Source: Planctomycetota bacterium
Lineage (GTDB): Bacteria; Planctomycetota; UBA1135; UBA2386
Direction of reading: 5' to 3'
Length of the DNA: 64,000 nucleotides
Assembly (NCBI GenBank): GCA_965223545.1
Contig: OZ245006.1
Span: forward strand, 1,472,001-1,536,000
Position 1 is the first letter of the stretch. Each line of letters starts with the position of its first letter. Below are positions 11,628 through 23,920 of this stretch, one piece after another. Under the pieces are notes generated by a model. The model made no database searches and had not been told where the DNA came from. It saw only the letters and a program-made list of their open reading frames with translations. The position numbers and the translations under genes were made by a program.

Positions 11628-11829
11628 CTCAGCGCGGCCGGGGCCGGAGCCAAAGACCGAGCGCACCGCGACAGTAGCGGAGCCCGCGAATCCACCGGTG
11701 CCGGACGGCCGCGCTGAGCGCAGACGCCAGTGTTGCTTTCGAGCGTCCGGGAGTTGCGGTATAGAAGTCCTGACGACAACCGGCCTTCGGAAAGGTTGTC
11801 GCCACGCGGAGGTTCTCGGCCCCGGACGC

Positions 11830-12990
11830 TCAACGCGCCGCCGCCGGAGCCCAATCGACCCGCATCAGCTGACCGGCGACGTAGCCGTCGACCGGAGTCA
11901 GCCGCACCGGAAGGCCCCACTCGGGCACGCCGGGCCGCCGCCACAGACGCGCGGGCAGCTCGACGACGCTCGGCCCGACGCTGCGCACCGTGGTCCGCGC
12001 GACCGCGCCTGGGCGCGCGGGGTCCTCGACCCCGACCTCTTGGTCCGGCACCACCACGCCCGCCGCCGCAGGCGGCAGATAGGCGACGATCGCGTCGGGG
12101 TGCCGCGCCACCACGGTGACCAACACCTCACCGGCGGCGACGAACTGCCCCTCGAGCCGCGCCACGCTCTCGACCGTGCCGGCCACCGGCGCGCGCAGCG
12201 CCAATCGCTGGCGCTCCAGTGCGATCTGCTCCAGCTCGACCTCTTGTGCCTGCACCTGCCAGCGCCGCGGCGCCAACAACACTTCTTGCCCCGCCATCCG
12301 CTCCCCGCCGGCAACCGCTTCCGCCGCGGCCACCCGGCTCTCCGTGGCCTCGGCGCGGCCTCGCTGCGCATCCACCTCGCGGCGCAAGTCGACGACCCGC
12401 TGCGCCCAGGCATCGTGGTCGGTCTGCAGCTTGTTGAGCGCCGAGGGCGAGGCCACTCCGCTCTCGCCCAACACGTCCACCCGCTCGAGCTCGATCGCGA
12501 CACCGCGCTGGCGGATGATCGCCTCCTCGAGATCGGCACGCGCCTGCAGCAGCTCGATGGCGGCTTCCTCTCGATCGACGTACAAGCGCCGGTCGACTCC
12601 CGATCGCTGCACGACGTCCGCGGCGGTGACCGCCAAGCGCTCCGCCTCCGCTTCGACCTCGGCCTGCAGTCGCGAGAGCTCGTGCCGAGCGCGCGTCAGC
12701 CGCAGCACGAGTTGGTCGTCCGACAACCGGCCGATGAGCTGACCGGCGTCTACAGCCTCGTGCACGCCGACCGCCAAGACCTGGACGATTCCGGCGGCGG
12801 GCGCGACGACCGAGTGGCGCGCGGCTTCGACGACGGCGGGCGCGGTGCCCGCCAACGGCTGCTGCCGCAGCAGGAGCAGCACCACTGCGAGCGCGCCCAG
12901 CCACACCATCAACGGCACCGCGCGGAACGCGCTACGCCGCAAGCGGCGCGCCAGCGAAGTGCGCGCCAACCGAGGAGCGCCGTCGGTCAT
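11830..12990 (-). CDS. HlyD-family periplasmic adaptor (membrane fusion protein)
   Basis: N-terminal TM; VVAPAAGIV..V.VHEAVDAGQ; long coiled coil; LRAPVAGTV..GQFVAAGEVL. Overlaps the upstream stop by ATGA. Confidence 0.85.
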   Translation of the reverse strand: MTDGAPRLARTSLARRLRRSAFRAVPLMVWLGALAVVLLLLRQQPLAGTAPAVVEAARHSVVAPAAGIVQVLAVGVHEAVDAGQLIGRLSDDQLVLRLTRARHELSRLQAEVEAEAERLAVTAADVVQRSGVDRRLYVDREEAAIELLQARADLEEAIIRQRGVAIELERVDVLGESGVASPSALNKLQTDHDAWAQRVVDLRREVDAQRGRAEATESRVAAAEAVAGGERMAGQEVLLAPRRWQVQAQEVELEQIALERQRLALRAPVAGTVESVARLEGQFVAAGEVLVTVVARHPDAIVAYLPPAAAGVVVPDQEVGVEDPARPGAVARTTVRSVGPSVVELPARLWRRPGVPEWGLPVRLTPVDGYVAGQLMRVDWAPAAAR

Positions 12991-13676
12991 GGCTCCTCGG
13001 TCCGCCCGTGCATCAACAGACTCACGCTCCCGACGCCCGGCAGGCTGCGCACGTCCTCGAGCAGGACCGATGACTGGTCGACATCGCGCAACCGCAGCTG
13101 ATAGGCGAACTCGACGCCCGCGCCGGTGCCGGTCTCGCGCAGCTGCAACAACGCGAAGCTGCGGCAGTAGTGCGCCAGGACGCGACGCAGCGGCGCCTCG
13201 TCTCCGCCGCCGTCGTCGAGCCGGAAGCGCAGCACACCATCCGAGTCGATGCGCTCGCCGAACCGCGACGCGGCCAGGTAGAGCGCGATCAGCAGTGCGA
13301 ACACCGTGCCGACCGCCGCCAGCGCCAGGTTGCGCGTTCCAACCGCGATGCCGACCGCCACGGCGAGGAACAAGAACGCGGTGTCGCGGGCGTCCTTGAT
13401 GGGCGTGCGGAAGCGGATCAACGCCAGCGCGCCGAACAGACCGAACGCGCCGGCGAGGTTGTTGCCGATCGCCAGCATGACGAGCGTGACGATCAAGCTG
13501 AGCAGAACCAGCGACTGCACTTGGGCACGCGAGTAGGACATGCCGTGGTGCGTCCAGACGTAGACCCACGCCACCAGCTGGCCGAGGACGAACGAGCACG
13601 CCAGGTGCAGGAGCGCGTCCGCCGCGTTGATGTCGCCCACCGGCGCGGCCAGCCACGTGTCCAACCACTCGTTCAC
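12987..13676 (-). CDS. DUF4956 family membrane protein
   Basis: IGNNLAGAFGLFGALALIRFRTPIKDARDTAFLF signature; several TM helices. Confidence 0.92.
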   Translation of the reverse strand: MNEWLDTWLAAPVGDINAADALLHLACSFVLGQLVAWVYVWTHHGMSYSRAQVQSLVLLSLIVTLVMLAIGNNLAGAFGLFGALALIRFRTPIKDARDTAFLFLAVAVGIAVGTRNLALAAVGTVFALLIALYLAASRFGERIDSDGVLRFRLDDGGGDEAPLRRVLAHYCRSFALLQLRETGTGAGVEFAYQLRLRDVDQSSVLLEDVRSLPGVGSVSLLMHGRTEEP

Positions 13677-14413
13677 TGCACTCCCTCGTCTGGCAAGTAT
13701 CCGTGGCTCGCGGCGACCTCGATCGAGTGACCGTACTTGGAGAACGACTGGCGCGCCAACCCGAAGCGGTGGACGACGGTCTGCATCCAGCCGGGGCAGC
13801 GATCGTTGAACTTGAGCTCCAGCACCACGCGACGACCGAGCACGGTGGCGAAGCCGGAGGCTTCCAACGGCACCGTCAACTGATCGGTGGCCAGCGTGCG
13901 CAGCCGCCGATCGAAGGTGACGCGCACCTCGGGGTCGAACAGGCCGACATAGGCCTCGCGGTCGTAGCGCACGACCACGGTCGGGCGGGCATCCAGCGCG
14001 TGCACCAAGCCGCGAAACTCGTCGCGGATCCCGCTCTGCCGCTCGCTAAGCGGCGGGGCGTCGGTCGCCGTGCCGTCGAGCACGGAGGCCAGCAAACGGC
14101 GTGGCACCGGGCAGCGGCTCTTCGCCACCAGGCCACCGGCGCGGCGCTTGATCTCCAGGAACAGCGGGTGCTCGGGATCCTCGTCGTAGCCGCGGATGCG
14201 CAGCTTGAACCGGCGGTCCTGACCCTCGACGGTTTCGCGGTAGAGGGGGAGTCCGGCGGAGTCGAGGTAGAGGCTGGCGATGGCATACTCGCCGGTGGGG
14301 CTGCGTGCGGCGTAGGCGTCGGGCTCGATGAACGGGCGCAGCGCCGCGCGCACCTCCGCCGCGAGTGCCTCGTCGATCTCGTACTTGCACTCGTGGCGGC
14401 GCACGCGAACCAT
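13673..14413 (-). CDS. VTC-domain polyphosphate polymerase-like protein
   Basis: RHECKY, SLYLDS, RFKLRIRGY, FLEIKRR, YDREAY, RVTFD, VLELKF, FSKY. Start may lie slightly upstream. Confidence 0.92.
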   Translation of the reverse strand: MVRVRRHECKYEIDEALAAEVRAALRPFIEPDAYAARSPTGEYAIASLYLDSAGLPLYRETVEGQDRRFKLRIRGYDEDPEHPLFLEIKRRAGGLVAKSRCPVPRRLLASVLDGTATDAPPLSERQSGIRDEFRGLVHALDARPTVVVRYDREAYVGLFDPEVRVTFDRRLRTLATDQLTVPLEASGFATVLGRRVVLELKFNDRCPGWMQTVVHRFGLARQSFSKYGHSIEVAASHGYLPDEGVQ

Positions 14414-14605
14414 GCCGCGCTCGCGGCCGACGTTGGGCTGGACCCTCGACACGCGGCGTAAGATACGCTGGGCACCCGGCCGTTGCCGAGCCCCGAGGCG
14501 GGAACCGGGCCACCCCGGGGCGGGACGGTGCAGGAGCGTTACAGCGTTGACAAGGGAGCCGCCGCACCACCGCTTCGCGGCGGCGAATCCAAAACAGGTT
14601 GCCCG

Positions 14606-16207
14606 ATGGTGCGAAACTCCGTCCTGCTCGCATTCTCCCTGGCTGCCGCGCCCGCAGCCCAACCGCCCGGCCAACCCAATGTCGTGCTGCTGATGGCCGA
14701 CGATTTGGGCTGGGGCGACGTGCGGTTCAACCGCGCTGCGGCTCGGGCGCGAACTCCCCATCTCGAAGCAATTGCGCGCGACAGCATCGTGTTCGACCGC
14801 TTCTACGCGCAAAGCCCGGTGTGCAGCCCGACGCGGGCGAGCGTTCTCACCGGGCGGCATCCGGCGCGGATGGCGATCCACGGCGCCAACGTCGGGCATC
14901 TGCCACGGTCGGAGACGACGCTGGCCGAGCTGCTGCGCGCGCAGGGGTACCGCACCGGACACTTCGGCAAGTGGCACCTCGGCACGCTCACCCGCGATGT
15001 GGCCGACAGCAACCGCGGCGGGCCGCGCGGTGCGGAGCACTACTCGCCGCCGGCGCAGCACGGCTTCGATGTGTGCTTCTCGACCGAAGCCAAGGTGCCG
15101 ACCTTCGACCCACTGCGGCGCCCCGCGTCGTGGCGAAATCGGCCGGAAGGCAGGTACGCCCATCGCCAGTTCGGATGGGACAGTTTGACCGAAGACGAGC
15201 CGTGGACAGCGTACGGCACCCGCTACTGGAATGCGGCGGGTGAAGAGGAACAGGCGCAGCTCCGCGGCGATGACAGCGCACTGCTCGCCGCGCGCGCCGT
15301 CACCTTCATCGAAGACTGCGTCGCCCGCCGGCAGCCGTTCCTCGCGGTCGTGTGGTTCCATGCCCCGCACTTGCCGGTCGTCGCCAGCGATGCGGACCGA
15401 GGCCTCTACGCCGACGCGGGCTCGTACCGGGCGAGCTACTTCGGCTGCATCACGGCCATGGACCGCGCCGTCGGCCACATCGATCGCGCCCTGCACCGGC
15501 TCGGAATCACCGACGACACGATCTTGGCGTTCACTTCCGACAACGGTCCCGAAGGAGACGACAACGCACCGGGCTCCGCCGGTCCGTTTCGTGGGCGCAA
15601 GCGCAGTCTGCTGGAAGGCGGAGTGCGCGTGCCGGGCTTGCTGCGTTGGCCGGCGCGATGGCCGCAGGGGCGGCGGTTGCGCAGGCTCGCGGCGTGCACA
15701 GTCGACACAATGCCGACGATCGCGGCCGCGGTGGGAGTGCCGATCCCGGCTTCACTGCGCGGCACGCTCGACGGCATCGACCTCCTACCGTTGATCGACG
15801 CGGACCGCCGCAGACCACGCGGCCTCGGGTTCGTGACGCACCGCCAGACGGCGTGGCACGCGGGCGCGTTCAAGCTGCTGAGCGAGCGGACGGACACCGA
15901 TTGGCTCTGGCAACTGTTCGACCTCGACGCGGATCCGGGCGAGACGCGCGATTTGAGAACGGCGATGCCCGAGCGCACCGCGGTGATGCGAGCCGCGCTG
16001 GCGCGGTGGCAGGCGGGATTGGTGACGGGGGAAGGGGGCGGGAGTGATGAAACGGAGCCTGGCTCCGTACGTTCACACCTCGGTGAGCGGCGCGGTGCGG
16101 ATCCGGGAGGGGTCGATCACGGCGGCGACGGCGGTCGAGACCGAGCCGATCGAGAACAGGAGGCCGCGGCGCGGGCGCGAGGGGTGGGCTGCCAGGGCGG
16201 CGTGTAG
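14606..16207 (+). CDS. Sulfatase (FGly-type), secreted
   Basis: PNVVLLMADDLG, CSPTRASVLTG, GKWHLG, SDNG, EGGVRVP. The last ~50 aa overlap the convergent gene and look spurious. Confidence 0.9.
   Translation: MVRNSVLLAFSLAAAPAAQPPGQPNVVLLMADDLGWGDVRFNRAAARARTPHLEAIARDSIVFDRFYAQSPVCSPTRASVLTGRHPARMAIHGANVGHLPRSETTLAELLRAQGYRTGHFGKWHLGTLTRDVADSNRGGPRGAEHYSPPAQHGFDVCFSTEAKVPTFDPLRRPASWRNRPEGRYAHRQFGWDSLTEDEPWTAYGTRYWNAAGEEEQAQLRGDDSALLAARAVTFIEDCVARRQPFLAVVWFHAPHLPVVASDADRGLYADAGSYRASYFGCITAMDRAVGHIDRALHRLGITDDTILAFTSDNGPEGDDNAPGSAGPFRGRKRSLLEGGVRVPGLLRWPARWPQGRRLRRLAACTVDTMPTIAAAVGVPIPASLRGTLDGIDLLPLIDADRRRPRGLGFVTHRQTAWHAGAFKLLSERTDTDWLWQLFDLDADPGETRDLRTAMPERTAVMRAALARWQAGLVTGEGGGSDETEPGSVRSHLGERRGADPGGVDHGGDGGRDRADREQEAAARARGVGCQGGV
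16044..16074 (-). repeat. REP-like palindromic element, copy 1
   Basis: Minus strand GAACGTACGGAGCCAGGCTCCGTTTCATCAC; 30/31 identical to the copy at 21366. Confidence 0.8.
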
Positions 16208-17149
16208 GTTGAGCGGCCCCATCGCCGGGCCGCAGTTGGCGAACTCGGAATAGGTCGAGGCGACGGATTCGCGGGGTACGTCGAGGACCTGGGCGAACAT
16301 GTCGGCGAACCAGGCCATCGGTGTGTTGGGGACGTAGATGCCGACCTGGTCGCGGTTGAGGCCGGCGGCGCGCAGGGCGGCGCCGCAGGCGGTCTCGATC
16401 GCTTCGGGGGTGAACTCGCGCAGAATGCGGCTGGCCTCCTTGCCGGCGCGGATGTGCCGGCGCGGGACCCCGTCGGCGGACTGGTCCACGTCGACGCGGA
16501 AGGCGCCGCACGAGTGCGCGGTCGACACCGCGTGGAAGCCCATCAGCCCCGGAGAGTCCGCGGGTCCGACGACGTAGGCGCCGGCGCCGTCGCCGAGAAA
16601 CCAGCTGATCGAGTCGCTCCAGTCGGCAACGCGGCTGTAGACGCAGCACACCACGACCAGGATCCGTCGCGCTTGACCCGCGTGGATCATCGAGCCCGCG
16701 AGCTGTAGGCCGGCCATCGCGCCGCTGCACGCGCTCTCGAGATTCCACGCCGGCACGCGCCAGCAGAGGGCCTTCATCAAGAACGCCGCGTCGCCGACGG
16801 CGGGCTCCATTGAAGGAAAGCCGGCCACCAACACCAAGTCGATGTCGTCGACGCCGATCTCGGCGGCGGCGAGCGCGTCGCGGGCCGCCGCCATCTCGAG
16901 GTCGATCGCGGTGTGCTCGTCGGCCAAGATGCGCCGCACTCGAGTACCGCGGAACGGGTCCTCCAGGTAGGGGCGCATCGTGCTGTCGAACGAAGCGGAT
17001 CCCTCTGCCGCAGCCGTGTCGTTCATGACGCGGGCCAGGGTCTGGCGTTCGACGCGCTGCAAGACGTCGGGGAACCGCTCGGCGAACCAGGAGTTGTCTC
17101 GCACGGTTCTGGGCACGGCCACCGCCACCGACTCGATTCTCGCGTTCAT
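16073..17149 (-). CDS. FabH/KAS III-like enzyme, furanolide synthase (CybF)-like
   Basis: PYLEDPFRG, AWNLESACSG (Cys), SWFLGDGAGA, YVPNTPMAW (Asn where FabH has His), FANCGP (Asn). Confidence 0.85.
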   Translation of the reverse strand: MNARIESVAVAVPRTVRDNSWFAERFPDVLQRVERQTLARVMNDTAAAEGSASFDSTMRPYLEDPFRGTRVRRILADEHTAIDLEMAAARDALAAAEIGVDDIDLVLVAGFPSMEPAVGDAAFLMKALCWRVPAWNLESACSGAMAGLQLAGSMIHAGQARRILVVVCCVYSRVADWSDSISWFLGDGAGAYVVGPADSPGLMGFHAVSTAHSCGAFRVDVDQSADGVPRRHIRAGKEASRILREFTPEAIETACGAALRAAGLNRDQVGIYVPNTPMAWFADMFAQVLDVPRESVASTYSEFANCGPAMGPLNLHAALAAHPSRPRRGLLFSIGSVSTAVAAVIDPSRIRTAPLTEV

Positions 17150-18897
17150 GACTGGCTCCGCAGGGCAGGGTCAGCGCGGTCTTGCGACCGGCTGTCGCTA
17201 CTGAATTGGCGCAGCGCGGCGATGCGCTGCGAGCCGTCGAGACGCACGTCGGGATCGGTGCGCACATCGAGCACGACCGGACCACCGCCGAGTCGCAAGC
17301 CCTGGCGCAGCGCGTCCTCGTCGCGGACGACCCGCGCTCGCACGCCGAACCCAGCGGCCACAGCGGTGAAGTCGACCGGTGCGAGACTGCAGTCGACGGC
17401 GATGCCGTACTGGTCGCGCAACCCGTGCTTGCACATGTTGAAGGCGGCGTCGTTGATGATGACGAAGGTCACCGGCACTTGCAGGCGGGCGGCGGACTGC
17501 AGCTCCAGGCCGGCCATCAGGAAGCCACCGTCGCCGCAGATCGCGAACACGCGGCGCTGCGGCGCGCCGAGCGCGTGGCCGATCGCGGACACGACTCCCG
17601 ACCCCATGGCGGCGAAGCCGAGGCTGGTGAAGAAGGAACCCGGCGTCGCCGGTCGGAGGTAGTGCAGCGCCATCGCCAGGTGCTCGCCGATGTCGGCGGT
17701 GAACACCGCGTCGGGCGGGCATTCGGCGTTCATCGCCTCGATCACCTGGGGCGTGGTGAGCAGGCCCGCGCGCGAGCCGCCGAGCTGTTGGCGGCGAGGC
17801 GCGACGGGTGCGCGACGGGGCAGTGGCCGGGCCAAGCGCGCGCCGATGCAACGGAGGGCGGCGCTCGCCTCGCCGACAATGCCGAGATCCACCTCGTAGT
17901 TGCGGCCGAATGCCTGCGGATCGAGGTCGATCTGGACGAACGCGGTGGAAGGCCGCAGCGCATCGCTCCACGCGTTGGTCGCCAGGTCATCCAGGCTCGA
18001 GCCGACCACCAGCACCACGTCGACGCCGCTTCGCAGGTAGTCGATGACGCTGTCGTGGCCACCGAAACCGAGCACGCCGAGGAACAGCGGGCTGTCCTCG
18101 GCAAACCCGCCCTTGCCCTTGGGCGTGACCGCGACGGGGCACTGCGCGCGCTCGGCCAGTGCCGCCGCGGCATCGCGCACCGCAGCGTCGCGGCCAGCGG
18201 CGCCGAGCAACAGGAATGGGCGCTGCGCGGTGGCGAGCAAGTCGGCGACGCGGCCACACGCCGCGGCGTCGGGCGCCGGCGCGGCCGGGACGGGGTCGGC
18301 ACGCAGGACGGGAGCGGCCAGCTCGACGTTGCCGACGTCGATCGGCAGGGACAAGAACGCCGGTCCACGGCGCCCGTTGTGCATCGAAGACCACTCCGAC
18401 AGCAGCGTGCCCACCGCCGCCGCCGGCCGAACGAGCCGCGCGGCGAAGCGCGTCACGGGCCGCGCCAGCGCCACCGCGTCACAGCCGTGTGGCGACCCCT
18501 CCTGCAGCGCGCCGCGGCCGAACGCCGTCGTCGCCACTTCACCGGCGATGACCAGCACCGGGATCCCGTCGGCGTGTGCGCTCGCGATGCCGGTGAGCGC
18601 GTTGGTCAAGCCCGGTCCCGACGTCACCAGCACCAAGGCCGGCCGACCCGTGGCGAGCGCGTGGCCCATCGCCAGATAGACCGCGTGGCTCTCCTGCACG
18701 ACGTGGTGCACCCGAATGGCCGACTGCTGCGCGAGCTCGGCGTAGAGCCGCGAGATGGTGCCCCCCGGAATGCCGAACACCGTGTCCACTCCGAGCCGCG
18801 TCAAGGTGTCGACCAACTGGCGCGACACCGACGGGATCGGCGCGACCTCGAGGTCTGGTGGCGAGAGGCGGGGGCGCTCTTTGCGGGTCAGCAACAT
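17146..18897 (-). CDS. ThDP-dependent acetolactate synthase-like enzyme (possible acyloin synthase, CybE-like)
   Basis: VFGIPGG, VTSGPGLTN, ADIGEH, AAMGSG, GDGGFLM..IIND. ATGA overlap with the KAS III-like gene; no ilvN regulatory subunit. Confidence 0.88.
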   Translation of the reverse strand: MLLTRKERPRLSPPDLEVAPIPSVSRQLVDTLTRLGVDTVFGIPGGTISRLYAELAQQSAIRVHHVVQESHAVYLAMGHALATGRPALVLVTSGPGLTNALTGIASAHADGIPVLVIAGEVATTAFGRGALQEGSPHGCDAVALARPVTRFAARLVRPAAAVGTLLSEWSSMHNGRRGPAFLSLPIDVGNVELAAPVLRADPVPAAPAPDAAACGRVADLLATAQRPFLLLGAAGRDAAVRDAAAALAERAQCPVAVTPKGKGGFAEDSPLFLGVLGFGGHDSVIDYLRSGVDVVLVVGSSLDDLATNAWSDALRPSTAFVQIDLDPQAFGRNYEVDLGIVGEASAALRCIGARLARPLPRRAPVAPRRQQLGGSRAGLLTTPQVIEAMNAECPPDAVFTADIGEHLAMALHYLRPATPGSFFTSLGFAAMGSGVVSAIGHALGAPQRRVFAICGDGGFLMAGLELQSAARLQVPVTFVIINDAAFNMCKHGLRDQYGIAVDCSLAPVDFTAVAAGFGVRARVVRDEDALRQGLRLGGGPVVLDVRTDPDVRLDGSQRIAALRQFSSDSRSQDRADPALRSQS

Positions 18898-19034
18898 CGG
18901 ACAACTCCGTTTCGTTGCTGGTCCACCCGGCGCCGGGCCGGAGCGTCACGGGGTTTCTTCGATTCTGCGCGACAGGGCGGGGCGGCGAGGGCGGTGCGGC
19001 GGGCGCAGCGGGGAAACCGAGGGCGAATCCATAC

Positions 19035-20096
19035 CTACACGAGGTCGGAGTCGCCGAGGTGGTAGCGCCAGTGGTCGTGGAGCTGAGTCCGTGAGGTGTG
19101 GTGGTGCCCCTGGCGGGTGATCCGGTGGGTCAGGTAGCGCGGGCGCCCTTCGAAGTCGGGAGACGGCGCGTAGCCCGCGCGGGCGAAGCACGCCATCAAG
19201 CGCCCGTCGTTGGGGGCACAGATCGCCAGCGCACCGCGGCGGCCGGCGGCGGCGGCGCGCTGCTCGACGTGCGCGAGCAGGGCCGCACCCGCGTCGACGT
19301 CGCAGTGCTCGGCGAGCCAGAGCTCGGCGATCGCCGCGGCACCGGGCGCGATGAGGTCGTGGCGACAGCGCCAAACGCAGTAGCCGGTGAGCCGATCGTC
19401 CAGGAGCACGCTGGCAAACGCGTAGACGCCCTCGGGGTGCTGGGCATAGCGCCATCGCAGCCACTCCGCGTCGCGGACCACGCCGACGGTTCTCGGCGCG
19501 CGGCTCGCGGCGTCCAGCTGATCGGGGCCGGGCAGACGATCGACGACCACGGCTCGTGGATGCCGGACGGCTGGGCGCAGCGGAGTGGCGAAGTCTCGCA
19601 CCAGGAACTCCACCGGCCGGAGCGCGTCGTAGCCCAGGTAGCGCGCGCCGGCGCGTTGCGCGTGCGACGGCGGGAAACCGTACAGCAGGAGGTCGCCGTT
19701 GCGTTCGCCCCAGAGCCGCGTCGCCGTCTCGCCCAGCACCGCAAACACGCCCGGGCGGCGCTCACGACCCGTGCGCCAACCCGGCACGACGAACGTCTGG
19801 ATGACGTGCACGGCGGTGCGCACCGCACCATTGCCGGTGCGAAAACGGACCGGAAAGCCGCCGAAGTGGCCGACGACCCGTCCTCCATCGACCGCGACCA
19901 GTGCCCGGCGGCCGCACGGGTTCTGGCAATACAGCCATTGCCACATCGGCCGCGAGGCGCTCGCTCTGCAGGCGCAAACCTCCGCGGCCGCGACGGCGGC
20001 CGCATCCCGATCGCCGACAGCTCGAATCTCGAGCCGCTCCACGCGCGAGTCCAAACCCCACGGCATCTCTCGGGCGACGCTTGCCGTTTCGATCAT
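19035..20096 (-). CDS. GNAT-family acyltransferase-like protein
   Basis: WQWLYCQNP..VVGHFGGFP..FVVPGWR..GVF..LYGFP..VVRDAEWLRWRY..GDSD, a tandem-GNAT-like pattern. Confidence 0.7.
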   Translation of the reverse strand: MIETASVAREMPWGLDSRVERLEIRAVGDRDAAAVAAAEVCACRASASRPMWQWLYCQNPCGRRALVAVDGGRVVGHFGGFPVRFRTGNGAVRTAVHVIQTFVVPGWRTGRERRPGVFAVLGETATRLWGERNGDLLLYGFPPSHAQRAGARYLGYDALRPVEFLVRDFATPLRPAVRHPRAVVVDRLPGPDQLDAASRAPRTVGVVRDAEWLRWRYAQHPEGVYAFASVLLDDRLTGYCVWRCRHDLIAPGAAAIAELWLAEHCDVDAGAALLAHVEQRAAAAGRRGALAICAPNDGRLMACFARAGYAPSPDFEGRPRYLTHRITRQGHHHTSRTQLHDHWRYHLGDSDLV

Positions 20097-20150
20097 GGCA
20101 CGAGCTCCATCGCCGATCGGCGCATTTGCGATTCTCCAACCAGGCTCGCC

Positions 20151-20240
20151 ATTGTAGCGCGTTGCGGGCGCACAAGAAGCCCCGCCGGGGCGCGATTGCG
20201 CAATCGCGCAAACCACGGCACGGGGCCGCGCTGCTACAAT
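20151..20240. promoter_or_regulatory. Divergent promoter region: two TACAAT -10 boxes with a central 20-bp perfect palindrome
   Basis: TACAAT on minus (20151-20156), GCGCGATTGCGCAATCGCGC (20190-20209), and extended -10 TGCTACAAT on plus (20232-20240). Confidence 0.5.
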
Positions 20241-20298
20241 TCGGGGACGCGCCGCACCGACCGCGACGGCGCGCACATCAACCGTCGAAGGAGTCGTT

Positions 20299-21363
20299 GT
20301 GCATCGATACATCTTGGTGGCCTCCTGCCTGACGTCGACGCTGGCGACGCAGACCACCTCGCCGGCGGCGGTCCCAACTGTCGAGGGCAACCACGCAGTG
20401 GAGCTGTTTCCGTTCGGCATCGACCGTCGCTTCCAGCAGCTGGACGCGACGCATGCCGGCAATCCGATGCTGATCAAGTCGATCGCGCTCCGGCGCGACG
20501 GCATTGGTCCACACGCCGCGCCCGCCCGGCTCGTCGACGTCGAGATCAGTCTCGGCGAGTGCAACCTGACCCTGCCATCCTCGCGCTACGACTACAACTA
20601 CCTCAGCAGCGGGCGCGTCGTCGCGTTCTCGCGCAAGACTGTGCAGCTGCCCGACTGGTCGCAGGCGGCCGGCTCCCCCGCCGCCTTTGATGCCCGCTTC
20701 GTCCTCGACCAACCCTTCAGCTACAGCGGCGGCGGCGGCTTGGTGATCGACGTGACGGCCACCAACTGCCGGACCGCACCCGGTGGCGTGTCTGGTGTCG
20801 GCGGCATGCTGACCGACGCGTTCTCGACGTTGCCATCGGTGGCACCGGCCACCTACACGGGCGTCGGCTGCACGATCGCTGGCCGCAGTGCGCCCTTCCT
20901 ACTGGCGATGCGCATGGAGAACCACGGCAGCAACTTCCCCAGCCACTCGATGCGCATGCGCAACGAGGTGTGGAACGGCCCGGCGAACGCACCGATCCTG
21001 ATCCACTTCGACGTGCAGGACCCAGCGCTGCCGGTGCCATGGCTGTGCTCGACCGTACGTGCCCTCCCCCTCCACCGAGCGCTCCTCGCCAACACCGACA
21101 GCACCGGCCACATGCCGCAGATCGTCATCAACTGCCCGTACCTGCCCACCCTCATCGGCGTCCGCCTCTTCGTCCAAGCGGCGACGGTGGACCCGGGCCA
21201 AGCACCCCTCGCCCCCGTCGTCCTCTCCAACGGTGCGGCCGCGACCATGCCAGCGTCGAGCAACCCGACCGGCCACGACATCGTGTTCCACACGGGACCC
21301 GCCGCGCAACCCGACGCCGAACTCCAGTTCGCCACCGGCCTCGCCATCGAACTCGGCCGCTAA
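20299..21363 (+). CDS. Secreted hypothetical protein
   Basis: Signal peptide (..TLATQ); RFQQLD..IKSIALRRD; CPYLPTLIGVRLFVQA..VLSNG. Confidence 0.75.
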   Translation: MHRYILVASCLTSTLATQTTSPAAVPTVEGNHAVELFPFGIDRRFQQLDATHAGNPMLIKSIALRRDGIGPHAAPARLVDVEISLGECNLTLPSSRYDYNYLSSGRVVAFSRKTVQLPDWSQAAGSPAAFDARFVLDQPFSYSGGGGLVIDVTATNCRTAPGGVSGVGGMLTDAFSTLPSVAPATYTGVGCTIAGRSAPFLLAMRMENHGSNFPSHSMRMRNEVWNGPANAPILIHFDVQDPALPVPWLCSTVRALPLHRALLANTDSTGHMPQIVINCPYLPTLIGVRLFVQAATVDPGQAPLAPVVLSNGAAATMPASSNPTGHDIVFHTGPAAQPDAELQFATGLAIELGR

Positions 21364-21365
21364 CC

Positions 21366-21396
21366 GAACGTACGGAGCCAGGCTCCGATTCATCAC
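21366..21396 (+). repeat. REP-like palindromic element, copy 2
   Basis: GAACGTACGGAGCCAGGCTCCGATTCATCAC, 2 nt after a stop codon. Confidence 0.8.
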
Positions 21397-21415
21397 CAAC
21401 CGCGCGCGGCGAGCG

Positions 21416-22780
21416 TCAACGATAGTGCATCTGCACCGTCAGACCCCGCGTCCCGACCAAGCCGAGGGGACCGAGCGGGTCCTGCACGAAGAACTGCGCG
21501 TACAGATTGCGGCCGTGATGGCGCGCCTCATTGGGGACGAAGAACGCGCGCGACGCGAACCCGGTCGCATCAGTGAAGATCGGGATGATGGCGACCGGCT
21601 TGGTGACCGGTTCGACGAGGAGATGCACGCCGGAGAGGTTGAGGTTGACCTGGCCGTGGCCGAGCAAGAACAGGCCTCCCGCGAGCGGCGGCGCGTCGTG
21701 GACCCGGAATCGCACATTCGGCGCGGTGATGTATGCCGAACCGAACACGTCGATGCGCGGCGCGCGTCCACCACTGCCGAATGTCGCCGGTCCGTAATCA
21801 TGATCGACGGCATCCGGATGCAGGACGGTCATGCTGCCCGCACTGTCCAAAGCCAGCAGCATCCCCGAGGGCAGGTCGGGATCGATCGTCTCGAACGCCG
21901 TGCCAGAGGGGTTGAACCACCCATCCTGAATCGGCGCCCCGGGCACCGCCCAGTCGTGGCACTGATAGTCGCCCGCAGCCGTGATCACGTGGAGGAGGCC
22001 GTCCTCGATCCTGCCGGCGCGCGGCCGCGCCGACAGCGAGAAGCCCGCGACCACGGCGGGAGCCGTCGGGCTGTTCAGATCGAAGCCAGTCACCCCACTC
22101 CGCGTGGACACCGCCAGGTAGCGCGGCCGGTACGTCATGCCCAGAACTTCCGCCCCCGGCAACGCCGCGGTCGCCAACACCGCCGGAAGGCTGCGCGGGG
22201 TCAAGTCGACGACCGAGATGCCGGAGCTGCGGCCACTGAGGCACGCCAGCTGCTCTTGGGCAACGACCCGTTCGAACGCGCCGGCGACAAACCCCCGAAC
22301 GCTCGGATAGCGTGGGTCGGCGGACAGGTCCAACACGACCATCCCGGGCGCGTCCGCAACGACCAGCAACAACTCCGCCTCGCGCGCCACGACAACATCG
22401 GAGCAACCGCTCGCCATCGGCAGTGGCACCGAGCCCACTTCGACCGGCGCCGTCGCGACCGAGCAGTCGAAGACGCGCAACGCCCCGGAGTCCTGCTGGA
22501 CGGCATACAGCCACGATCGAAACATCGAGAGCCGCACGGGCGCGGTGCTCCAACCCGTCGCCGGCACACTGCGCACCGGCACGGCCCCGCCGACGTCGAA
22601 CACCCGCAGCTCACCGGCGACCGCGGCGTATGCGTACTCTGCGTTGGCCCCGGCGTAGCCGACCACGTCGTGCGCCTGCGCAGCCGGCACCGCGGCCAGC
22701 TGCGCCACGGAGGTCACGTTGTGCTGTGGCTGCGCCGCAGCCGTGGCAGCCATCAACAGAGCAACCAGATGTCGAACCAT
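21416..22780 (-). CDS. Secreted LVIVD-repeat-like beta-propeller protein
   Basis: Signal peptide; repeats YAYAA..LRVFDV, LYAV..LRVFDCS..PVEVG, GMVVLDLS..P; shared C-terminal domain. Confidence 0.75.
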   Translation of the reverse strand: MVRHLVALLMAATAAAQPQHNVTSVAQLAAVPAAQAHDVVGYAGANAEYAYAAVAGELRVFDVGGAVPVRSVPATGWSTAPVRLSMFRSWLYAVQQDSGALRVFDCSVATAPVEVGSVPLPMASGCSDVVVAREAELLLVVADAPGMVVLDLSADPRYPSVRGFVAGAFERVVAQEQLACLSGRSSGISVVDLTPRSLPAVLATAALPGAEVLGMTYRPRYLAVSTRSGVTGFDLNSPTAPAVVAGFSLSARPRAGRIEDGLLHVITAAGDYQCHDWAVPGAPIQDGWFNPSGTAFETIDPDLPSGMLLALDSAGSMTVLHPDAVDHDYGPATFGSGGRAPRIDVFGSAYITAPNVRFRVHDAPPLAGGLFLLGHGQVNLNLSGVHLLVEPVTKPVAIIPIFTDATGFASRAFFVPNEARHHGRNLYAQFFVQDPLGPLGLVGTRGLTVQMHYR

Positions 22781-23305: not shown

Positions 23306-23421
23306 TTGGTAGGCGGGACTCCCCAAACCATTGCGGGCGGTCGCCCGGATCGAGCGCCATCTTACCCCGCACTCGTGGCTGAGACGCCCCCCCAGTGTGC
23401 CGTCCTGGCCCGTGGCGGGCG

Positions 23422-23450
23422 AAGCGAGAAAATCGAGTGCGACTCCGTAC
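23422..23450 (-). repeat. REP-like element, degenerate copy 3
   Basis: Minus strand GTACGGAGTCGCACTCGATTTTCTCGCTT; closely matches the arm of the 62916 palindrome and shares the G of the VOC stop codon. Confidence 0.65.
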
Positions 23451-23920
23451 TACCCGGGGAGGGCTTGGGCGGCGCGGGCTTGCATCTCTTCGGGGGTGAG
23501 GTCTTCGATGCGGGTGGAGATCGACCAGCGGTGGCCGAAGGGGTCCTTGACCATGCCGTAGCGGTCGCCCCAGAACATGTCCTGCACCGGCATCTGCGGG
23601 GTGGCGCCGGCTTCGACGGCCTTGTTGTAGACGGCGTCGACGTCCTCGACGCAGAGGTGCACGATGACGGCGCCGTCGCGGTCGGGGTCGGGCCCGAGGC
23701 TGCCCCAGTCGGGGAACTCGTCGGCCAGCATGACGACCGAGTCGCCGATGCGGATCTGCGCGTGCAGCAACAGATCGGTGCCGGGCATCGGGTTCTGGAA
23801 CTGCACGGCCGCGCCGAAGGCGCGCTCGTAGAACGAGAGCGCCCGCGCCGCGCCGCGGACGACGAGGTGTGGGGTGACGGTGTGAAAGCCCTCGGGGATC
23901 GGATTGACTGCCTTGGCCAT
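23450..23920 (-). CDS. VOC/glyoxalase family protein (PhnB-like)
   Basis: PIPEGFHTVTPHL, FYERAFGA, HAQIRIGDS, DMFWGDRYG..DPFGHRW. Confidence 0.93.
   Translation of the reverse strand: MAKAVNPIPEGFHTVTPHLVVRGAARALSFYERAFGAAVQFQNPMPGTDLLLHAQIRIGDSVVMLADEFPDWGSLGPDPDRDGAVIVHLCVEDVDAVYNKAVEAGATPQMPVQDMFWGDRYGMVKDPFGHRWSISTRIEDLTPEEMQARAAQALPG

Follow-up and report, generated by a model that had tools for sequence, protein, structure and literature searches.

The window analysed here is a stretch of 64,000 nucleotides from a Planctomycetota bacterium (GCA_965223545.1, contig OZ245006.1, positions 1,472,001 to 1,536,000), and the subject of this study is a pair of adjacent genes on its minus strand, both with intact frames in the open reading frame (ORF) calls for the window. 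The gene at 17146..18897 encodes P0002 (583 aa), a thiamine diphosphate (ThDP)-dependent carboligase with all three TPP_enzyme domains of Pfam (N, M and C). The gene at 16073..17149 encodes P0001 (358 aa), a protein of the β-ketoacyl-acyl carrier protein synthase III (KAS III) fold with the Pfam domains ACP_syn_III and ACP_syn_III_C. The two frames meet at 17146..17149 (minus strand), where the junction letters CAGTCATGAAC form an ATGA stop/start overlap that points to translational coupling of P0002 and P0001. GC content and GC content at third codon positions (GC3) are host-like in both genes (GC3 0.89-0.91). An earlier sequence-only reading had proposed a furanolide-type biosynthetic pair in a probable planctomycete; the gene pair, its coordinates, the coupling and the quoted motifs are all present in the sequence and its translation. 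The host assignment agrees with the Ffh protein of the window, for which 27 of the 28 organism-named matches are Planctomycetota or Planctomycetes and one is a 'bacterium' (among 120 matches listed).

The order of the genes, a ThDP gene followed by a KAS III gene of the CybF clade, is that of cybE and cybF in the cyanobacterin cluster, and also that of the mac and ncl clusters. As described in PMC12395478 and PMC13288894, the CybE/CybF route consists of O-acylation of an acyloin acid with an enoyl-coenzyme A (CoA), after which come a Morita-Baylis-Hillman (MBH)-type closure and a 1,4-hydride shift. PMC8777810 presents CybF as the first MBH enzyme.

The phylogeny puts P0001 with the furanolide synthases, apart from FabH, as the sequence-only reading had supposed. 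In a FastTree tree of 117 rows it falls within a clade of 94 rows (Shimodaira-Hasegawa support 100) together with locus L027 and the cyanobacterial four-gene clusters, and in an IQ-TREE analysis (LG+G4, 30 rows) a CybF clade of 18 rows including P0001 received support 100/100; both placements are anchored on proxies, namely L027 and the four-gene clusters, in place of CybF itself. L027 is the Plesiocystis pacifica contig named in the supplement of PMC8777810, and its ThDP ORF ends at contig position 134868, which is the cybE coordinate of that paper. P0001 is 42% identical to the KAS III protein of L027 and 37-40% identical to those of 16 loci that combine lyase, ligase, ThDP and KAS III genes. 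A protein search with P0001 returned 59 relatives at 36-51% identity before the matches fell to FabH. From a genome scan for the CybF family 125 relatives were confirmed, and the locus counts given below use the best 80 of these 125; the 80 loci are mainly from cyanobacteria and myxobacteria, and none is from a named planctomycete (records near the host genome may be omitted). In the ESM Atlas the only matches were KAS III clusters without a name, which come from Myxococcota and Cyanobacteriota; a profile search yielded 658 representatives with E<=1e-30, lacking genomic context. The AlphaFold2 model of P0001 (pLDDT 92) has the FabH fold, with solved structures at no more than 24% identity among the matches listed.

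The motifs of P0001 are PYLEDPFRGTRVRRIL, WNLESAC (C141), NTPMAW (N275; HQAN in FabH) and ANCGP (N305). C141, N275 and N305 are the consensus of the four-gene clusters and of L027, whereas the histidine that FabH has at the asparagine position is one that we take to be a decarboxylation-site residue. The N-terminal insert, which had been put forward as a mark of CybF, is not specific to it, since a D(P/L)F(R/Q)G insert is present in other ThDP-partnered KAS III subfamilies too. From its place in the tree and its residues we firmly assign P0001 to the CybF furanolide-synthase family, as a predicted acyltransferase/cyclase for which O-acylation, MBH closure and hydride shift are expected.

P0002 is predicted to be an α-hydroxy-β-keto acid (HKA) synthase, i.e. 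an acyloin acid synthase in the broad sense, of a myxobacterial clade that we call T2. Its best sequence and fold matches are the HKA synthases BbmA and CsmA (PDB 8X3X, 8XOD, 8X3Z), with 342 bits for BbmA, 253 for CsmA and at most 197 for acetolactate synthases; two CybE-type proteins score just 187/150 and 222/164 bits against BbmA/CsmA. Foldseek ranks 1-7 for the P0002 model are all 'ThDP-dependent HKA synthase', with a poor fit of the domain packing (TM score about 0.55). P0002 retains E69 and the GDG..ND motif, and its G492 aligns with G484 of BbmA. Where IlvB has PKD, GARFDDR and VRQW, P0002 has PID, GSSLDDL and CKHG, with loss of the Lys, Arg and Trp positions, which are presumably acceptor-site residues. 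Because P0002 is only about 31-35% identical to BbmA and CsmA, neither orthology nor substrate choice can be transferred from them.

The sequence-only reading had called the enzyme CybE-like and set it apart from IlvB. The second part holds, in that P0002 is of the acyloin acid synthase type; as an orthologue of CybE it was rejected, lying outside the CybE/ScyA clade at about 30% identity. Its identity is 29-33% with the four-gene cluster ThDP enzymes and 32% with that of L027, compared with 51-54% for those of L001, L002, L039, L103 and L110, and a CybE-type hidden Markov model gave it 310 bits versus 622-970 for two clade members outside the model. Pocket segments differ as well, with ADIGEHL and ALQEG in P0002 versus TEAGNSF and AFQET in the CybE types. 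The functional distance between P0002 and CybE may still be small, since PMC12395478 terms BbmA and CsmA 'new CybE homologs', whose products are α-hydroxy-β-keto acids and, further along the route, furanolide analogues.

The pair is a mosaic, because the KAS III protein falls in the CybF clade but the ThDP enzyme falls in a clade usually found with another KAS III subfamily. By their ThDP gene, 67 of the 80 CybF-family loci are CybE-type, three are T2 (L001, L002, L039), two have only other types (L066, L073), and in eight none was detected, some of these eight lying at contig ends. CybF-type genes without a detected ThDP gene were seen in L017, L021, L028, L034 and L036. The combination of a T2 enzyme with a CybF-type partner is common to the window, Nannocystis radixulma (L002), Polyangium sp. 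y55x31 (L039) and one deltaproteobacterial metagenome-assembled genome; at the equivalent ThDP/KAS III junction L001, L002 and L039 have a GTGA overlap. The window, L002, L039 and metagenomic proteins form a small subclade in both the ThDP and the KAS trees (supports 97/98 and 100/100). Joining the KAS subclade of the window to the subfamily that we call type B was rejected by the approximately unbiased (AU) test (p=0.0001; IQ-TREE, 30 rows). We infer one partner swap in myxobacteria, after which the two genes were passed on together; L073 and L066 seem to have arisen by swaps of their own. In L001, which has the closest genome-borne relative of the pair, the ThDP gene (L001:8303-9998) is split in two frames, by a frameshift or a long-read error.

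Type B KAS III proteins carry the motifs DDLFRG, WSLDVGC and GNQSLGW, the last replacing HQAN. They are widespread, coupled to T2 enzymes in the order of Polyangium and in metagenomes (L103:3149-4279, L110, L111, L114-L117, L122-L133). Of 12 metagenomic ThDP loci scoring at least 760 bits, ten have a type B partner (one truncated), one a type C partner and one none adjacent, and a CybF-type partner was found at none of 80 metagenomic ThDP-family loci; these loci come from a scan with an alignment query, a scan with a single-protein query having given no matches. Type C proteins (HQG/HQA; L106, L107, L135-L150), like some further ones, are partnered by related ThDP enzymes, and for none of these, type B included, did a product turn up in our searches. 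Two distinct ThDP/KAS III pairs, one of the CybE/CybF type and one of type C, stand in the single loci L007:5051-11137 and L060, and genome G304 has at least four ThDP/KAS III pairs. In the actinomycete Lentzea waywayandensis (L059), a cluster of lyase, ligase, ThDP and CybF-type genes is a four-gene candidate.

Among the planctomycetes searched the pair was found in the host genome alone. With the KAS profile, eight of 300 class relatives gave matches at E<=1e-40, at 137-153 bits, where family members score 441-568; four of the eight showed HQAN, and we read all eight as FabH, so that CybF-type KAS III was not found in these 300 genomes, some of them incomplete. With the ThDP profile, none of 400 other genomes of the phylum (again some incomplete) matched at E<=1e-110. 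Since the pair was not found in the planctomycetes searched and its nearest named relatives are myxobacterial, the simplest reading is that the unit was probably acquired from myxobacteria. In the literature we found neither a furanolide pathway in Planctomycetota nor a mosaic pairing of this kind, a weak negative as most subscription papers lay outside the search.

No lyase, ligase or tailoring gene is linked to the pair within the window, as the sequence-only reading had noted for the ammonia lyase and the ligase; the 25 AMP-binding matches and the single lyase match of the genome all lie elsewhere. The locus is thus not a canonical four-gene furanolide cluster (cybBCEF). The missing CoA ligase had been taken as a sign of novelty, a view that does not hold. 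Both lyase and ligase genes occur in only 16 of the 80 CybF-family loci, and among the 46 loci with full 10-kb flanks 12 have both and 33 have neither; given these 33 loci and a published bare pair in P. pacifica, the absence is ordinary. That pair, reported in connection with deoxyenhygrolides in PMC8777810, likewise consists of cybE and cybF only, with no operon. It differs from the window pair in its ThDP enzyme, which is CybE-type, and in its genome, which has an unlinked PAL-like lyase with the motif RFHGCG, which we take to be a signature of phenylalanine ammonia-lyase (PAL).

A ligase search of the whole genome found a candidate, and that for a tyrosine ammonia-lyase (TAL) or PAL came back empty. 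The best ligase candidate is of the FadD type (G000 C1:8029941-8031467), 42% identical to a cluster ligase and passing the same NCBIfam model, and it is not linked to the pair. As a dedicated partner it is unsupported, being found in one of 40 relatives and having only 36-40% homologues in the four matching myxobacterial genomes. The only aromatic lyase of the genome is a histidine ammonia-lyase (HAL) with an 'LSH' motif, located between a urocanase-like (hutU-like) frame and hutG in a hut operon. Of the other carriers of the T2/CybF pair, G301 and G303 have HAL only and G302 has a PAL-like gene, while G304, with a canonical pair, has only HAL-type lyases; a missing PAL was accordingly rejected as a hallmark of the mosaic type.

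We consider it probable that the two enzymes form a unit that would convert an acyloin acid and an enoyl-CoA to a butenolide, i.e. a furanolide-type lactone, each chemical step being predicted from family placement; a product of this class was also what the sequence-only reading had proposed. P0002 would provide the acyloin acid. P0001 would join an α,β-unsaturated acyl-CoA to the acyloin via Cys141 by decarboxylative O-acylation, and would then close the ring by an MBH-type step with hydride shift, as described for CybF. The acyl-CoA would be supplied from elsewhere in the cell, candidates being scavenged cinnamates activated by the unlinked FadD-type ligase, or aliphatic enoyl-CoAs. The β and γ substituents may differ from those of the cyanobacterin type, because the acyloin synthase is of a different clade with a different pocket. 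In favour of this proposal, the coupled pair is kept in L002, L039 and (with the split ThDP gene) L001, the subclades of the two trees are congruent, the catalytic and signature motifs match the four-gene cluster consensus, and an IlvB (next to ilvC) and a FabH are encoded separately in the genome. CybE and CybF accept many substrate analogues in vitro, according to section 8 of PMC12395478. A tentative extension, which we regard as rather doubtful, is that ThDP enzymes and KAS III proteins with the insert belong to a superfamily whose members combine in various ways, CybE plus CybF being the sole combination studied, and that the mosaic lineage, with no PAL in three of four carriers, uses a donor other than a cinnamoyl one for its butenolide (an aliphatic enoyl-CoA or, much less likely, urocanoyl-CoA supplied through HAL). 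If true, the furanolide would be of a new chemotype, and the pathway would be the first of its kind in Planctomycetota.

Several observations weigh against a furanolide unit. T2 enzymes occur in 10 of 301 genomes of the order of Polyangium, and their partners are a type B KAS III in eight cases (7/9 without the unpublished genome G783), a divergent KAS III in one and a CybF type in one. In a ThDP tree of 94 rows, with cyanobacterial rows thinned to a subset and duplicates and L112 omitted, P0002 stands outside the CybE clade (50 rows, support 100, stem 0.97), and forcing P0002 into that clade was rejected in a 26-row tree (AU p=0.00375). The ScyA-related NCBIfam model NF035927 gives P0002 264 bits versus 604 for L027, and in the trees relatives stand for CybE/CybF and BbmA/CsmA themselves. 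The branches of P0001 and P0002 are long. In retention of conserved columns P0002 comes last among 30 (149 of 167) and P0001 eighth from last among 94 (53 of 60), the losses of P0001 lying near the C-terminus; the G-R-I-x-x-G-D loop and the RWG motif of the family are gone from P0001. PAL and TAL are absent from the genome, and for the bare pair of P. pacifica the link between genes and product is unproven in section 2.3 of PMC8777810. Prediction of a physical complex of P0002 and P0001 (score 0.00, mark 0.32) counts neither for nor against the unit.

The alternative that survives best, though we hold it to be unlikely, is that the pair yields an acylated acyloin without the furanolide ring, either an O-acyl ester or, from a saturated or hydroxy acyl-CoA or acyl carrier protein (ACP), a product of decarboxylative C-acylation as with CqsB1/NzsJ. 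Precedent exists in carbazole biosynthesis, where a ThDP acyloin acid synthase feeds a KAS III-like enzyme (CqsB3/CqsB1, NzsH/NzsJ; PMC7466098), a likeness drawn by description only. The missing PAL/TAL leaves the host without a source of a cinnamoyl donor, which would suit such a product, as would the usual tie of the ThDP clade to other KAS III subfamilies. However, P0001 is nested in the CybF clade, could not be joined to type B, and does not have the FabH decarboxylation-site histidine. The carbazole pathway requires an aromatase, together with an ACP or hydroxyacyl donor; next to the window pair, neither an ACP gene nor an aromatase-like one was recognised.

It is quite improbable that the unit is a mere passenger, acquired horizontally and drifting or silent in its host through absent donor supply. 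The long terminal branches, the reduced retention of conserved columns, the restriction to one genome among the planctomycetes searched, the missing PAL/TAL and the split ThDP gene of L001 would all fit a passenger, yet the frames are intact, the catalytic residues and the coupling are kept, and the GC3 is host-like; moreover G301, G304 and G303 likewise manage with HAL-type lyases only. An additional acetolactate synthase and FabH of primary metabolism are scarcely credible, and P0002 was rejected as an acetolactate synthase: the best NCBIfam matches are indeed acolac_lg (274 bits) and FabH models (107-113 bits), but these scores are far under the cut-offs (538 and 249-292), true IlvB and FabH are encoded elsewhere in the genome, the IlvB motifs are replaced and HQAN is absent.

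The interest of the proposed furanolide unit lies in its exchanged partner, the missing PAL and a host in which it is unusual; ligase-less pairs are common and published. The degree of surprise is moderate, as the minimal architecture was already known and the product may be an ordinary furanolide. CybF is in use as a biocatalyst, and the natural pairing seen here, in which a CybF-type cyclase is joined to another kind of acyloin synthase and the host lacks a cinnamate source of its own, tests the reach of the chemistry to other donors and substituents. The pair further indicates that myxobacteria have two or more widespread KAS III subfamilies, as yet uncharacterised, with ThDP enzymes as partners, and it is probably a rare case of a biosynthetic unit passed from myxobacteria to a planctomycete.

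Upstream of the pair and on the same strand lies a GNAT-like gene (19035..20096, start approximate, minus strand) with a weak Acetyltransf_1 match. Its family has seven copies in the host genome, is kept in 36 of 40 relatives and was found in none of the 80 CybF-family loci; the gene was therefore dismissed as a pathway member and is probably outside the pathway. The family is double-GNAT-like, and one copy (G000 C1:8027736-8028680) adjoins fabH and the FadD-type ligase. A short-read contig of 9,662 bp spans 11733-21394 with zero differing letters, possibly from the source sample and hence not independent. Since it joins the pair to the GNAT-like gene that is present in 36 of the 40 relatives, misassembly of the pair is unlikely.

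Downstream, a sulfatase ORF (14483-16207, plus strand; Sulfatase Pfam match) is convergent with the KAS III gene and overlaps its final 135 bp. The ORF spans a short dispersed repeat, similar to repetitive extragenic palindromic (REP) elements, at 16040..16080 (no strand assigned; 69 genome matches), directly downstream of the KAS III gene, and the overlap with its repeat is perhaps an insertion scar. Dispersed repeats in the window, at 11650-11830, 16040-16080, 21365-21425 and 23400-23455, have 62-118 matches in the genome.

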